Of a stretch of DNA of 64,000 bases, positions 21,016 through 25,561 are shown piece after piece. The first letter of the stretch is position 1, and each line of letters opens with the position of its first letter. Where the stretch lies: assembly GCA_963692865.2 (NCBI GenBank), contig OY843592.1:736001-800000 (forward strand), read 5' to 3'. This DNA comes from a bacterium (GTDB lineage Bacteria > UBA8248). Under the pieces are notes generated by a model, which was not told where the DNA came from, ran no database searches, and was given only the letters and a program-made list of their open reading frames with translations. Position numbers and translations under genes: made by a program.

Positions 21016-21978
21016 GTGAGCGACAAGAACCTGCAAGCGATATCATCTGCAAGTCGTCAGATTGCGCTTGTCGGGCGTTCCGGACAACCGTCTCCACAAG
21101 TAGGGAACGAATCGCAAGAACCTCATGTTCGAGTTGACTCGTTGAACAGAGCGCCATTCGAGGCTATTTCTCGCCCAATGGTGATTTGTGGCGATGCCAC
21201 GCAAGCTCTGAAGCTTCTCCCTGAAAAGTCCATTCAAACGGTTGTCACGTCACCGCCCTATTGGTCATTGCGCGATTACGGGGTTGAGGAACAGATTGGG
21301 CGGGACGACAGTCTGCGGAGCTATGTCAAGAGCATCGTTTGCACCTTCGAGCAGATAAGGCGCGTCTTGCGCGACGATGGCACTGTTTGGCTGAACGTTG
21401 GTGATTCCTACACATCCGGCAACCGGAGATATCGTGCGCCAGATCGGAAAAACCGTGCACGCGCCATGTCAGTGCGACCGCCTACGCCAGAAGGACTGAA
21501 ACCAAAAGACTTGATAGGTGTTCCTTGGAGATTGGCGTTCGCTCTGCAAGATGCGGGTTGGTGGGTACGAAGTGAAGTCATATGGCACAAGCCGAATGCC
21601 CATCCGGAGTCCGTTCGAGACCGACCGACCAAAGCTCATGAGACGGTTTTCCTCTTGTCAAAGGACAAGGGCTATTACTACGACCACGAAATCGTCAAGG
21701 GGCCGCGCGACCGTCGCCTGCGAACGGTTTGGGAGATTCCCACTGAACCGGTGAAGCGCGTGAATGGGAAAGCAGATGACCATCCCGCGATGATGCCTCT
21801 CACGCTTGCTCGATGCTGTGTAGCCATTACAAGCCGCGATGACAGTATCGTACTCGACCCGTATGCGGGTTCGGGAACAACGCTTCTGGCGGCGCGTGAA
21901 CTCGGGCGAAGGTGGGTTGGGATTGAAATCAAGCCCGCTTTCGTGGACCTGATTGAACGGCGGTTGTGCGTGTCATGA
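21016..21978 (+). CDS. Beta-class DNA methyltransferase (N4-cytosine type, M.SmaI/M.Cfr9I-like)
   Basis: Motif IV TSPPYW precedes motif I DPYAGSGTT; LNVGDSY...TPEGLKPKDL...PWRLAFALQ...PESVRDRPT matches the M.SmaI/Cfr9I pattern as I recall it; codon usage unlike neighbours. Confidence 0.9.
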   Translation: MSDKNLQAISSASRQIALVGRSGQPSPQVGNESQEPHVRVDSLNRAPFEAISRPMVICGDATQALKLLPEKSIQTVVTSPPYWSLRDYGVEEQIGRDDSLRSYVKSIVCTFEQIRRVLRDDGTVWLNVGDSYTSGNRRYRAPDRKNRARAMSVRPPTPEGLKPKDLIGVPWRLAFALQDAGWWVRSEVIWHKPNAHPESVRDRPTKAHETVFLLSKDKGYYYDHEIVKGPRDRRLRTVWEIPTEPVKRVNGKADDHPAMMPLTLARCCVAITSRDDSIVLDPYAGSGTTLLAARELGRRWVGIEIKPAFVDLIERRLCVS

Positions 21979-22730
21979 CGCTCGATGAACTCAAGGCGAC
22001 TCTCGATTCGTTCTCACCGGTCAAGATCGAATTCGTTGCAAGGGTTATGGAATCTTTGGCGAATCCTCCGAGTGCTAACATTCGATCCAGAGGAACATGG
22101 CTGACAAGCGAGCCGGACTGGATTGAATACTTCGGGCTTGCTTTATCGGTTCACCATGGAGCTACTACTGAGCCGCTGGGGCTCTCGTCGTTTGAGGCGG
22201 TGTTCAGAAACGCTTGTGAGCACCTTGGCTGGCCGATTGATCCTCCGGGCTCACGAACCCGGCGATTCGTTGATATGGTCGTTCGGCCTAAGTCAGGCAA
22301 CCGTCGGCGATTGTCTCTAAAGTCCACTGCCGCCAAGAACTTATCCAGGACAACGTTGCATATTTCCAAACTGACGGAGGCAGCATGGGTTCAGGACGCA
22401 CGTACCGCCAGAGATCGACGAGCCCGTACACTTGAGTTATTCAGGGAATACCAGAGGGCCGTTAAGCAGATAGTCATGCTCCGTGCGTTTCGGGAAGACA
22501 TTGGCAAGATACCGTATAAGTATCAGCTCGTTGAGGTTCCAGTCCGCATCTTTGATTCCATTCAGGAGGTACCGCTGAGAGTCTTTGAACGGGATGCGCC
22601 AGTAATCGAATGTACCGTTGGAGATCGCGTGGTGGCAGTTGTGGCCATCGACCGGTCCGATGCAAAGATTACAGTCCGGCGAGTTCAACTTTCTGCCTGC
22701 ACCGTTCATGTGGAATGGGATAGAGCGTAA
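21975..22730 (+). CDS. Putative type II restriction endonuclease (SmaI-like)
   Basis: ATGA overlap with the MTase. Segments FGLALSVHH, SRTRRFVD...SLKSTAAKNLSRTTLHISKLTE, YQLVEVP and CTVHVEWD resemble R.SmaI from memory (not computed). Confidence 0.7.
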   Translation: MTLDELKATLDSFSPVKIEFVARVMESLANPPSANIRSRGTWLTSEPDWIEYFGLALSVHHGATTEPLGLSSFEAVFRNACEHLGWPIDPPGSRTRRFVDMVVRPKSGNRRRLSLKSTAAKNLSRTTLHISKLTEAAWVQDARTARDRRARTLELFREYQRAVKQIVMLRAFREDIGKIPYKYQLVEVPVRIFDSIQEVPLRVFERDAPVIECTVGDRVVAVVAIDRSDAKITVRRVQLSACTVHVEWDRA

Positions 22731-22808
22731 CGGGGGACGTAGTGCCAGTGAAGTCCGCCGGCGCATCGGCGGGGAATGAAACGCCGCCGTTTATTCACCC
22801 GCACCCGC

Positions 22809-22881
22809 AAATGGATTCCGGCTTTCGCCGGAATGACGGCAGTGGTCGATTCCGACCGATGAGGGGTTTTTCAACAACCCC
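22809..22881 (-). repeat. Right-end copy of the MITE/repeat family
   Basis: AAATGGATTCCGGCTTTCGCCGGAATGACGGCAGTGG...TTTTTCAACAACCCC is an inverted, diverged copy of about 15832-15905. Confidence 0.8.
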
Positions 22882-22972
22882 GGGTAGCGGAGATTCACGC
22901 CCGGAGCGATATTGAAAATGAAGCGCGTCCTGCCGCCGGGCGGTTCTTGTGGTTTTTAAGGGAGATTTGCCG

Positions 22973-23218
22973 ATGTCGGACGCAGAAGTGACGGTCTATT
23001 CGTCCACGTTCTGAGCGCCGTGCAAGGCGGTGAAAGAGTTTCTTTCCCATCACGGCGTGGCGTATACGGAAAAACTCGTTGATCAGGACGAGGAAGCCCT
23101 GGAGGAACTCTTCCGGCGGGCGAACATGCGGGCCACGCCCGTCATATTCATCGGCGAGGAGAAAGTGGTCGGTTTCGACCGGGCGAAGCTCCAGGCGCTT
23201 TTGGGGCTCGCCGCGTGA
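22973..23218 (+). CDS. Glutaredoxin/NrdH-like selenoprotein (UxxC; Sec at TGA 23012-23014), 81 aa
   Basis: AGGGAG RBS, then MSDAEVTVYSSTF-TGA-APCKAVKEFLSHHGVAY...ATPVIFIG...VGFD. The UGA occupies the first Cys position of the CxxC, and a SECIS-like hairpin follows. The ORF track reports only the part from 23030. Confidence 0.88.
23015..23058 (+). promoter_or_regulatory. Putative bacterial SECIS element for the glutaredoxin UGA
   Basis: Outer stem GCGCCGTG/CACGGCGT, inner stem GAAAGA/TCTTTC (23032-23046), apical loop GTT starting 23 nt after the UGA. Confidence 0.7.
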
Positions 23219-23514
23219 ACGGGAGGCGGAAGACGCTTCCCTGCCCCGGCTGAGGGCAGCGCATACCCGTCCCGTGGGGCGCGAAGCCGCGCGATCTGAT
23301 CGATTGCGAGAACTGAGCGGGCGTCAGGTTCCGCCTGGGCCGGGCGGAGGGGGCGGAAGCGCTCACCGTCGCGCAGATGGTCTCATGCCCCCTTTGCGGT
23401 GAGTACGTTCCGGTGGATGAGGATACCCCGCCAGGCGCCGTCGTGGAGCACGACGGAAAGAAGCTGCGACTCGAAAAAGAGTTCGGCGCGTTCATCCTCA
23501 CGCCTGCGGAGTAG
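23215..23514 (+). CDS. Putative two-selenocysteine tandem zinc-ribbon-like protein (C10xxU13, C31xxU34, C58xxC61, H79), 99 aa
   Basis: GTGA overlap with the glutaredoxin stop. Read-through gives MNGRRKTLPCPGUGQRIPVPWGAKPRDLIDCENUAGVRFRLGRAEGAEALTVAQMVSCPLCGEYVPVDEDTPPGAVVEHDGKKLRLEKEFGAFILTPAE*, with TGAs at 23251 and 23314. Absent from the ORF track. Confidence 0.8.
23268..23281 (+). promoter_or_regulatory. Putative SECIS hairpin after UGA 23251
   Basis: CGTCC-CGTG-GGGCG; 5-bp stem with one G-U pair, loop with GU starting 19 nt after the UGA. Short stem. Confidence 0.45.
23329..23349 (+). promoter_or_regulatory. Putative SECIS hairpin after UGA 23314
   Basis: TTCCGCCTG-GGC-CGGGCGGAG; 9-bp stem with a G-first loop starting 21 nt after the UGA. 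Confidence 0.6.
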
Positions 23515-23646: not shown

Positions 23647-24039
23647 ATGGCTTCTCAACCGCAGGCCGCTGTCCGACCAGCCCGGATTGGCAAATTGAAC
23701 CGGGATTTGCTCGCGCAATTGAAGGAGTTCGAAAATACTCCCGAGGAGGAGCGCTGGCCGGGCGCAACGTGGCCTACGCCTCAGGCGTTTCGGGACGCGG
23801 AGGCGTTCGTTCGTAAGCTGCCGCTGGATTCGGTTCCCATGCCCGATATAGGGCTGGCCGATGACGGAGAAGTCAATTTTCTGTGGAAAAAAGACGGGGT
23901 TCACGTTGATCTGGGATTTTACGGGACGGGCGCCTACTCCTATTTTGCGCGCGGGAAATCGGGGAACAAAATTTATGAAGAGGATGCTCTCGTATCGGAT
24001 GATTTTCCCGGTGAAATTCTAGCATTGTTCAAAAACTGA
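23647..24039 (+). CDS. Hypothetical protein (possible antitoxin/partner)
   Basis: 130-aa ORF with GGGAG RBS; W-x-G-A...P-x-IG...DGEV..LW pattern; closely followed by the next ORF. Confidence 0.7.
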   Translation: MASQPQAAVRPARIGKLNRDLLAQLKEFENTPEEERWPGATWPTPQAFRDAEAFVRKLPLDSVPMPDIGLADDGEVNFLWKKDGVHVDLGFYGTGAYSYFARGKSGNKIYEEDALVSDDFPGEILALFKN

Positions 24040-24046
24040 CAATACG

Positions 24047-24550
24047 TTGCCGCTCCCAGTATTACACCTCGATGAGTCGAAGAGCGCCGCGCCGGAAATT
24101 TCTCCCGGAATCGTTGAAGACGAAGAACATCTGATTCGCGAAATGTTCAATCCGCAACATATCAACGAAGAAGGGGAAGTAATCGAAAGAGCCATTTCCG
24201 TGAATGAACTGCTTGCAGACGGTTTTTCCGTTCATAGAATACGACATGTTTCGAAGGAATTCGTGGAAAAATCCATACAGGCGAGATTGTCGAGAAAAAG
24301 GAAAGAGCCCTGGACGAGTGAAGGCGTGTCCAGACTAAAGACTCTGGCGGTTCGTCAGATTCTCCTGGACAACGAAAGGGCGTTTGTCGTTATCGATACG
24401 GCCACGGAAGACAATCCCGGACATGCGAGCATCTATTTTGCCGCGCCTCAAAAAGGCAAGGCGTATGCGCGCGATGCGCGTGGTTTCCTTTTGCCGCTTC
24501 TTCAAAACAGGGTCACCCTCGATGAGGCGTATGAGGGCGCAACCGGTTAG
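24047..24550 (+). CDS. Hypothetical protein, possibly RES/ADP-ribosyltransferase-like fold
   Basis: 167-aa AT-richer ORF with LIREMFNP, GFSVHR and DNPGHASI segments; fold assignment is inference. Confidence 0.6.
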   Translation: MPLPVLHLDESKSAAPEISPGIVEDEEHLIREMFNPQHINEEGEVIERAISVNELLADGFSVHRIRHVSKEFVEKSIQARLSRKRKEPWTSEGVSRLKTLAVRQILLDNERAFVVIDTATEDNPGHASIYFAAPQKGKAYARDARGFLLPLLQNRVTLDEAYEGATG

Positions 24551-24604: not shown

Positions 24605-25561
24605 GTGGCTGAACGCGATTTTGAAATCATCATCATCGGGGCGGGGCCGGCCGGGCTGACGGCGGGGCTGTATACGGCGCGCTCGAAGCTGAACGTGGTC
24701 TGCTATGAAAAACTCGCGCCCGGCGGCGAGATTCTCAACACCGAGCACGTGGAGGACTACCCGGGCTTCGAGCTGGTCGGCGGCCAGGAGCTGGCGGCCA
24801 AATTCGCCGATCACGCCATGAAGTTCGGCCTCAAGATCGAGATGGAGGAAGTCACCGAGGTCAGAAAGGACGGGGACGATTTCATCGTCACGACCGACAT
24901 GGGCGTGCGCCGCTGCGGCGCGGTGATCTACACGCCAGGCGGGCATCCGAAGAAGCTCGGCATTCCGGGCGAGGAGCAATACGCCGGCAAGGGCGTGAGC
25001 TACTGCGCGCTCTGCGACGGCGCGTTCTTCCAGGACGAGGTCATCACCGTAATCGGCGGCGGGAACAGCGCCGTGGAAGAGGGCCAGTTCCTCACGAAGT
25101 ACGGCACGAAGGTCTACATCATCCACCGCCGCGACCAGTTCCGCGCCCATGCGGTCCTGGTGGACAAGATCCGCGAGAACCCGAAAGTCGAGATCATCAC
25201 CGACTACGTGGCCGAAGAAGTCGTCGGCGACGACCGGGAGATGAAGAAACTGCGCATCCGGAACGTCAAGACCGACGAGACGAAAGAGATCGACGCGACG
25301 GGCCTTTTCGTCTTCATCGGTTTTATTCCGAACACGGATTTGATAAAAGATCACGTGGAAAAGGACGATGCCGGTTTCATCCTCACGGACCAGAACATGG
25401 AGACCAACGTTCCGGGCCTGTTCGTGGCCGGTGATTGCAGAAGCCAGTTGATTCGCCAGATCACCAACGCGTCGGGCGACGCGACGACGGCGGCGGTGGC
25501 GGCGGAGAAATATCTCGAAGCCCAGGAAGAGGCCAGGAAACAGGCCGCGGCGGCTTCCTAG
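24605..25561 (+). CDS. trxB: Thioredoxin-disulfide reductase
   Basis: IIGAGPAGLTA, GKGVSYCALCDG (redox CxxC), GGGNSAVEEG, IHRRDQFRA, PGLFVAGD. Confidence 0.95.
   Translation: MAERDFEIIIIGAGPAGLTAGLYTARSKLNVVCYEKLAPGGEILNTEHVEDYPGFELVGGQELAAKFADHAMKFGLKIEMEEVTEVRKDGDDFIVTTDMGVRRCGAVIYTPGGHPKKLGIPGEEQYAGKGVSYCALCDGAFFQDEVITVIGGGNSAVEEGQFLTKYGTKVYIIHRRDQFRAHAVLVDKIRENPKVEIITDYVAEEVVGDDREMKKLRIRNVKTDETKEIDATGLFVFIGFIPNTDLIKDHVEKDDAGFILTDQNMETNVPGLFVAGDCRSQLIRQITNASGDATTAAVAAEKYLEAQEEARKQAAAAS

Follow-up and report, generated by a model that had tools for sequence, protein, structure and literature searches.

We examined a 64,000-nucleotide stretch of contig OY843592.1 (positions 736,001 to 800,000 of the forward strand; GenBank assembly GCA_963692865.2) from a bacterium of the GTDB phylum UBA8248. 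The whole of this stretch is called the window, and all positions below are counted from its first letter unless another locus is named. The subject is a short gene of the window, here called the ribbon gene, which is interrupted by two in-frame TGA codons and very probably encodes a selenoprotein of 99 residues. An earlier note, made from the letters alone, had placed this gene directly behind a glutaredoxin-like gene with its GTG start overlapping the glutaredoxin stop, had read both TGAs as selenocysteine (Sec, U), and had pointed out the knuckle motifs and the duplicated halves of the product. Apart from the decoding as Sec, which is weighed below, each of these points, with its coordinates, was confirmed on the sequence. 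The gene and its parts are as follows.

23215-23514, forward strand: very probable selenoprotein (ribbon) gene, 99 codons plus TAG; predicted product a tandem LysW-like zinc ribbon
23251-23253, forward strand: UGA1, predicted Sec13, second ligand of knuckle 1 (C10-P-G-U13)
23314-23316, forward strand: UGA2, predicted Sec34, second ligand of knuckle 2 (C31-E-N-U34)
23242-23316, forward strand: predicted N-terminal ribbon with ligands C10, U13, C31 and U34, followed by invariant A35-G36
23386-23454, forward strand: predicted C-terminal ribbon with C58, C61, H79 and D80

The GTG start at 23215-23217 and the TGA stop of the upstream glutaredoxin-like gene at 23216-23218 form a GTGA overlap, which suggests that translation of the ribbon gene is coupled to that of the upstream gene. 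This start is supported because relatives carry ATG in place of GTG at the same position. A fusion of the ribbon protein with the glutaredoxin was considered and ruled out because the two genes sit in different frames. Reading through the TGAs at codon 13 and codon 34 as far as the TAG at 23512-23514 gives 99 residues with the motifs CPGU-x17-CENU and then CPLC-x17-H. The product contains LPCPGUGQRIPVPW and IDCENUAGVRFRL, later SCPLCGEYVPVD and VVEHDGKKLRL, and ends in FILTPAE. Its two halves pair RIPV with YVPV and GVRFRL with GKKLRL, and they are 29% identical across 45 residues (E = 1e-5, for that single comparison). Contigs of a DNA run from another study (X5) span both TGAs (record 22, 23230-23317), and none of the differences listed for them falls on either TGA; 47 differences are unlisted, so this is weak evidence that both codons were read correctly.

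We looked for homologues with a six-frame search of 61 related genomes and a profile search across 51 genomes from the phylum. The six-frame search gave matches in 27 genomes, two weak ones among them being spurious: a match in G038 (with two TGAs) and the second match in G041 were both discarded once translated. The profile search found the ribbon family in 30 of the 51 phylum genomes, with two TGAs in nine, one TGA in nine and none in 12; the TGA-bearing forms (18 of the 30 genomes) span at least three genera. We then aligned 26 extracted loci, and a larger alignment of 75 sequences was obtained after adding 50 database homologues.

The frame is kept in all 26 aligned loci, with no frameshift and no stop other than TGA, and every in-frame TGA falls on codon 13 or codon 34. 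The first of these is TGA in 15 of the loci and TGT or TGC in the other 11; for the second the counts are 10 and 16. All four site combinations (U/U, U/C, C/U and C/C) were seen among the homologues, and in the N-terminal ribbon Sec occurs at the second ligand of each knuckle only. Across the 75 sequences the only invariant columns are positions 13 and 34, which are Cys or Sec, and G74, while C10 and C31 are retained in 90% or more of them. The C-terminal ribbon is more variable at its last two positions, with H or C at position 79 and D, C or G at position 80 in relatives, and it forms a full Cys4 or Cys3His site in distant ones. The tree requires at least five Cys/Sec changes at site 13 and at least four at site 34, though it is poorly resolved, with strong support for one of its 23 inner branches.

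Selection was measured on 12 same-genus genes, leaving out one with a one-codon deletion (L024). The ratio of nonsynonymous to synonymous polymorphism (pN/pS) was 0.50 before UGA1, 0.33 between the two UGAs and 0.24 after UGA2, and variable sites fell on codon positions 1, 2 and 3 in the numbers 38, 35 and 78. The frame downstream of both TGAs is thus under purifying selection, and overlapping frames can be ruled out because of the pN/pS values and the codon-position pattern. The earlier note had proposed that homologues with Cys or TGA at positions 13 and 34 and with coding conservation beyond them would support its reading, and such homologues were found in the 26 loci, together with the low pN/pS values past each TGA.

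The same note had named a lack of sel genes as a finding that would turn the frame into a pseudogene. Instead, the genome encodes a tRNA-Sec with anticodon TCA (76.7 bits), selA (567.2 bits, cut-off 267.9), selB (391.7 bits, cut-off 242.25) and selD (334.6 bits, cut-off 125), the last of which contains a single in-frame TGA of its own. This is a complete Sec machinery, and the organism uses Sec. The tRNA-Sec was matched twice with equal scores and the same E-value, on different contigs (C1:1207504-1207596 and C4:29719-29811); this may be an assembly duplicate, the contamination estimate of the assembly being 6.7%.

Each of the two TGAs is followed by a candidate selenocysteine insertion sequence (SECIS) hairpin.

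23267-23283, forward strand: candidate SECIS hairpin 1, 6-bp stem with one bulge, loop CGUG starting 19 nt after UGA1
23329-23349, forward strand: candidate SECIS hairpin 2, 9-bp stem (UUCCGCCUG/CGGGCGGAG), loop GGC starting 21 nt after UGA2

Hairpin 2 is common to ten Sec forms, with a consensus energy of -17.4 kcal/mol, and is a clear candidate SECIS element from its sequence and predicted folding. In the sole form from another genus with Sec at UGA2 (L038), a G-C pair is changed to C-G and a U-G pair to U-A, so that the pairs are preserved. The mean minimum free energy (MFE) over this stretch was -16.7 for the Sec forms (n = 10) versus -11.5 for the Cys forms (n = 16), a comparison that is descriptive only, as the sequences are related. 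We propose that UGA 23251 and UGA 23314 would be decoded as Sec by SelA, SelB, SelC and SelD, aided by the hairpins downstream. With alternation of Sec and Cys at both sites, conservation past both and a complete Sec machinery, there is little doubt on sequence grounds that the ribbon gene is a real gene decoded with Sec, as had been claimed.

The ribbon family is sparsely represented in databases. Only 39 of 1.84 billion cluster representatives matched at E <= 1e-10, and among 83 database clusters all the named ones were called 'hypothetical protein', save two JGI entries labelled YacG-type gyrase inhibitor. The source labels of the database relatives were Nitrospinota/Nitrospinae, Tectomicrobia or 'bacterium'. 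Relatives of the Sec forms were present only as truncations of 51-75 aa that begin just after a TGA, which bears out the suggestion that gene callers miss these forms. Neither the ribbon protein itself nor the families listed for the 75 members gave a match to the NCBIfam selenoprotein models, and no LysW-like or PF21344 entry appears in the available part of the prokaryotic selenoprotein family table of a 2026 review (PMC13188914). The BSepDB paper, in the portion accessible to us, counts 111 families, not all of them named, and reports 48-54 selenoprotein genes in Nitrospinota-labelled metagenome-assembled genomes of GTDB phylum UBA8248. Literature on selenoproteins, selenocysteine zinc ribbons and mer/glutaredoxin operons yielded no description of the family. 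On these grounds the ribbon family is probably a new selenoprotein family absent from curated lists, in agreement with the earlier suggestion of a small, undescribed family, and it would extend the selenoprotein set beyond the curated models and the 2026 lists, as far as these are accessible, in a place where annotation truncates the Sec forms.

Several known or predicted selenoproteins resemble the ribbon protein in part. There is some precedent for Sec at the ligand positions of a zinc ribbon: the sections of the review at hand describe a predicted double selenoprotein of the FmdB family (TIGR02605), from ocean metagenomes, with two Sec (UxxU) in a CxxC-type zinc-ribbon knuckle (PMC13188914). 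The FmdB motif places both residues in one knuckle, whereas the ribbon protein has CxxU in each of two knuckles and scores 9.2 bits against the TIGR02605 cut-off of 31.3; eight of the 75 family members matched TIGR02605 at E up to 0.01, none of them checked against the cut-off. The same part of the review lists NF041197 (OS_HP3 or 'hypothetical protein DW'), also small, predicted to be a selenoprotein and rich in Cys, with two CxxC motifs but a single Sec in an RxU or GxU motif (PMC13188914); NF041197 gave no match to the ribbon protein at E up to 10 and was not among the families listed for the 75 members. It also describes small two-Sec metal-binding proteins, linked to mercury or other metal genes, in which the two Sec are proposed as soft-metal ligands (PMC13188914). 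These have other folds and motifs (UxxU or CU, in the text available), and the ribbon protein did not match their models.

The sequence and predicted structure of the ribbon protein point to a LysW-like fold. Its best Pfam match was Zn_ribbon_LysW (PF21344; 26.6, cut-off 27) and its best NCBIfam match the archaeal LysW/ArgW domain (NF041070; 40.6, cut-off 75), the latter being matched by all 75 family members. An AlphaFold2 model built from the 75-row alignment was all-beta, with a predicted local distance difference test (pLDDT) score of 86.2. Its only convincing neighbour in the PDB was LysW of Sulfolobus tokodaii (3vpb_E; probability 1.00, TMt 0.76, root-mean-square deviation 1.1 Å, 36% identity over 47 columns), and a profile search of PDB sequences retrieved the same chain (E = 4.6e-6), aligning profile positions 54-96 with residues 4-47. 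The C-terminal half is thus the part most like Sulfolobus LysW (CPVC...EHEC), and the alignment includes the CPxC and the His of the EHEC knuckle. Judged from sequence comparison and the structure model, the ribbon protein is an internal duplication of two LysW-like zinc ribbons.

In LysW carriers an acidic C-terminal tail ending in EDWGE bears the substrate. The small zinc-ribbon fold is what LysW and ArgW have in common with the ribbon protein, which otherwise differs from them in being tandem, in having Sec possible at the outer ligands of its N-terminal ribbon and in being always paired with a Sec-containing glutaredoxin. The earlier note's description of a LysW-like protein without the EDWGE tail holds, given the matches below cut-off, the fold of 3vpb_E and the FILTPAE ending. 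The occurrence of both Sec where a zinc-ribbon (LysW) fold has its metal ligands, and not at a thioredoxin-fold active site, would be of interest in itself, and the naturally coexisting Cys4, Cys3Sec and Cys2Sec2 versions offer a series for probing selenium at a tetrahedral metal site. For one natural all-Cys homologue (P0010), a protein atlas search returned only PF21344 clusters of 93-101 aa labelled Methylomirabilota/Rokubacteria, which we take as leads only.

The most constant companion of the ribbon gene is the gene upstream of it, and a second redox gene lies downstream.

22973-23218, forward strand: upstream Sec-glutaredoxin, 81 aa, YruB/NrdH-like, active site F-U-A-P-C, TGA stop at 23216-23218
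24605-25561, forward strand: thioredoxin-disulfide reductase (TrxR, trxB), TIGR01292 362.2 bits (cut-off 343.45), CALC redox motif

The Sec codon of the glutaredoxin is the TGA at 23012-23014, and the protein matched PF00462 with 57.5 bits and TIGR02196 with 79.8 bits, below the cut-off of 88.55. Every one of the 26 ribbon loci has a glutaredoxin gene immediately before the ribbon gene, on the same strand and with Sec in its UxxC motif (24 found by script and two by eye), and in 19 of 24 loci the glutaredoxin stop and the ribbon start overlap. Across the phylum the Sec-glutaredoxin was found in 43 of 51 genomes, each with one TGA and with no Cys version among the matches. All 30 ribbon-bearing genomes carry it; the converse fails. 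These observations strongly support an obligate link of the ribbon gene to the Sec-glutaredoxin.

In this genus the typical gene order is MmgE/PrpD, Sec-glutaredoxin, ribbon gene, TrxR and a NuoI-like ferredoxin, with PrpD in 10 of 13 loci. TrxR lies no more than 1.6 kb downstream in 12 of the 13 same-genus loci and directly downstream of the ribbon gene in most of them, and it is likely the reductant of the Sec-glutaredoxin. In the window the neighbours are MmgE/PrpD, a DNA methylase, a nuclease-like open reading frame (ORF), the glutaredoxin, two ORFs assigned to no family, TrxR and the NuoI-like gene.

Outside the genus the surroundings change. Among 11 such loci, tblastn detected MerE, MerT or MerF in nine, MerR in six, a metallochaperone resembling the CopZ N-terminus in four and TrxR in two, and the family assignments were confirmed. 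Counted together, genes for metal transport, sensing or chaperoning neighbour the ribbon gene in 10 of the 11 loci, including one (L033) with MerR and the CopZ-like gene; YnfA and redoxin genes were other neighbours in relatives. In one operon (G030) the order is glutaredoxin, ribbon gene, CopZ-like gene, MerT, a 448-aa class-I flavoprotein disulfide reductase, MerR and TrxR.

The flavoprotein disulfide reductase, with active site CALRGC, stands in the operon of the glutaredoxin/ribbon pair in two genomes (L052 2059-3405 in G030 and L053 2377-3745 in G042) and scored below the cut-offs of the MerA model (302 bits) and the glutathione reductase model (323 bits). The G042 copy consists of two separate ORFs, and further ORFs that resemble a transposase, judged by eye only, lie about 0.7 kb upstream of it. 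At another locus (L037, about 1845-2240, downstream of the ribbon gene) we saw by eye a MerT-like membrane protein interrupted by an in-frame TGA that forms part of a C-U motif; it probably belongs to the known family of Sec-containing mercuric transporters.

The neighbourhoods suggest what the ribbon protein might do. We infer that it is an accessory partner or client of the Sec-glutaredoxin/thioredoxin reductase module, in which reducing power would pass from NADPH to TrxR and on to the U-x-x-C glutaredoxin, whose target would be the Cys2Sec2 site. That site would bind a soft metal of the Hg(II)/Cd/Zn type and pass it on by thiolate/selenolate ligand exchange, and the glutaredoxin would either maintain its ligands in the reduced state or accept the metal from it. 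Pairing with the Sec-glutaredoxin and TrxR, with MerT, MerE or MerF and MerR in related genera, points to a putative thiol/selenol route for soft metals. A glutaredoxin-dependent MerA-like enzyme has been reported for Synechocystis, in the part of that paper available (PMC8261052). A similar role is assigned to MerP and NmerA, small soluble Cys-pair carriers of Hg(II) between MerT-type transporters and a flavoprotein reductase, but these have the ferredoxin-like heavy-metal-associated (HMA) fold and two ligands, whereas the ribbon protein is a zinc ribbon with four. The gene neighbourhood of relatives outside the genus, with MerT, MerE or MerF and MerR, resembles that of mer operons, whereas in the genome studied here the same queries detected no Mer genes. 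Taking everything into account, we somewhat favour a functional 99-aa selenoprotein that is a predicted soft-metal/redox relay partner of the Sec-glutaredoxin and TrxR. The specific function as a metal relay with the glutaredoxin, predicted from the neighbours, is held only tentatively and falls short of an even chance.

Several observations weigh against this reading. MerT, MerE, MerF, MerR and CopZ-like genes are absent from the 13 same-genus loci and from elsewhere in this genome (G000; tblastn, E 1e-5), and at least one Sec occurs in all 13 loci of this Mer-free genus versus three of the 11 loci outside it. The gene is also dispensable: the genus is represented by 22 other genomes, and 10 of them lack it. 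That Sec use is highest in the Mer-free genus and that the gene is dispensable count against a mercury-specific role. Three gene-less genomes were inspected (G002, G007 and G013), and two of them (G002 and G013) keep only about the first 13 codons. Hairpin 1 is weak, with a consensus of -4.7 kcal/mol, and shows no gain in stability in Sec forms (mean MFE -10.8 versus -12.2 in Cys forms), since the conserved VPWD motif encodes this stretch; as a SECIS element it is compatible but not discriminating. Transcript evidence came from three RNA-library runs, two of which (X21 and X22) have the same figures and probably represent a single data set; contigs from these two match 22985-23134 in the glutaredoxin gene and none lies on 23215-23514, which is uninformative either way. 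Finally, a redox role, by selenylsulfide or diselenide, suits the glutaredoxin/TrxR context equally well. The earlier note had offered a choice between a Cys2Sec2 metal site and paired selenylsulfides, and either may be right.

In the two genomes with a partial gene, the remnant (L048 in G002 and L051 in G013) includes the CPG-TGA stretch and directly follows the glutaredoxin stop. These 5' remnants indicate recent deletions of the ribbon gene. In G007 and G026 the glutaredoxin is followed directly by trxB, with no ribbon gene between them.

The redox role just named is the strongest of the alternatives, and we consider it unlikely but with a real chance of being right. Here the N-terminal site would be a redox centre and not a metal carrier, cycling between CxxU selenol/thiol and selenylsulfide or forming a U13-U34 diselenide, and any zinc would be released upon oxidation as in a zinc redox switch. 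The protein could then be a low-potential electron shuttle or the terminal substrate of the TrxR/Sec-glutaredoxin chain, feeding for example a peroxidase or a reductase. The conserved core of the locus is indeed redox, with the Sec-glutaredoxin upstream in 26 of 26 loci and TrxR downstream, the most distant loci (L039) have a thiol oxidoreductase of the AhpC/TSA-redoxin family downstream, and the genus without Mer genes at the locus uses the most Sec. CxxU is moreover a usual redox motif of selenoproteins, according to the sections available of the review (PMC13188914). However, the four positions are conserved together with zinc-ribbon spacing in a LysW-like fold, which is the signature of a metal site, and a redox CxxU pair would have no need of a second knuckle. 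Metal genes also neighbour the ribbon gene in 10 of the 11 loci outside the genus.

A more ambitious version of the soft-metal relay is a selenium-dependent, split mercuric-ion relay or reductase made of the Sec-glutaredoxin, the Cys2Sec2 ribbon and a flavoprotein (TrxR, or the MerA-like core of G030 and G042); we regard it as a long shot. The two surface selenolates of the ribbon would accept Hg(II) from MerT, MerE or MerF and hand it on to the U-x-x-C glutaredoxin and then to the flavoprotein, so that small proteins would stand in for the built-in metal-handling arms of canonical MerA. The 448-aa length of the G030 flavoprotein and its C-terminal ending, judged by eye, suggest that it has no NmerA domain and no C-terminal Cys pair. 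Canonical MerA scored above cut-off in only three of the 61 related genomes, and a true ribbon homologue is missing from all three. If true, the split relay would be a first both for selenoproteins of the zinc-ribbon/LysW fold and for Sec-based metallochaperone pairs.

It is still less probable that the N-terminal site binds iron, making the protein a one-electron carrier with a rubredoxin-like Fe(Cys)2(Sec)2 centre and a potential tuned by the two selenolates. The CPxCG...CxxC(A)G pattern, with Sec at the second ligands in a pseudo-twofold arrangement, would suit a rubredoxin-type site, and two of the 75 members weakly matched a rubrerythrin-like archaeal model. The upstream gene scored best with the YruB glutaredoxin-like family TIGR02196, YruB being named from a Clostridium rubredoxin operon. 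Iron is disfavoured by the nearest relative in sequence and fold, the zinc-binding LysW, and no rubredoxin family was among the 25 best of 31 Pfam matches at E up to 10. The adjacent flavoprotein, too, is a TrxR above cut-off with a CxxC disulfide centre and not a rubredoxin reductase.

A decaying pseudogene or chance frame, from which only a C-terminal ORF of 45 to 63 aa or nothing at all would be made, is highly improbable and was rejected. It would account for the dispensability of the gene, for the 5' remnant in two of the three inspected same-genus genomes without it, for the absence of RNA contigs on it and for gene callers predicting only the C-terminal piece. However, decay would not explain why each stop is a TGA at one of the two Cys ligand positions (18 of 30 genomes, at least three genera) or why the 26 loci are free of frameshifts and other stops; nor would it leave purifying selection upstream of, between and after the TGAs in an organism with complete Sec machinery. 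Least probable of all, to the point of being nearly negligible, and likewise rejected, is an amino-group carrier of the LysW/ArgW type with a biosynthetic intermediate borne on its C-terminal Glu: the LysW-like sequence and fold and the final Glu of 12 of the 13 same-genus proteins would fit, but the protein is not a LysW because it has no EDWGE-type acidic tail, a C-terminus that varies outside the genus (G, A, V, I or longer tails), scores below the curated cut-offs (40.6 versus 75 and 26.6 versus 27) and no ATP-grasp LysX/ArgX or Lys/Arg pathway gene among the neighbours examined.

Between the ribbon gene and trxB the window holds a further pair of genes.

23647-24039 and 24047-24550, forward strand: two ORFs of 130 and 167 aa, assigned to no family

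Neither ORF had a Pfam or NCBIfam match. The centre of the TrxR match lies about 0.75 kb downstream in five same-genus loci versus 1.36-1.57 kb in seven, this one included, and in G013 (L051) the same pair follows the remnant of the ribbon gene. The pair is probably an insertion that stands outside the module, and it may be a mobile two-gene cassette.

Upstream, at 21016-22730, an N6/N4 DNA methylase gene (PF01555, 161.5 bits) is overlapped by an ORF whose match to a SmaI-type endonuclease is weak and below cut-off. These look like an inserted restriction-modification pair because PrpD is only about 1.06 kb upstream in same-genus loci. Just upstream of the glutaredoxin gene, at 22816-22835 (and more broadly 22767-22900), we noted a palindromic repeat resembling repetitive extragenic palindromic (REP) elements, TTCCGGCTTTCGCCGGAATG. 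This 20-mer has 171 copies in the genome, four of them in the window, and the depth of the X5 contigs is very high there.

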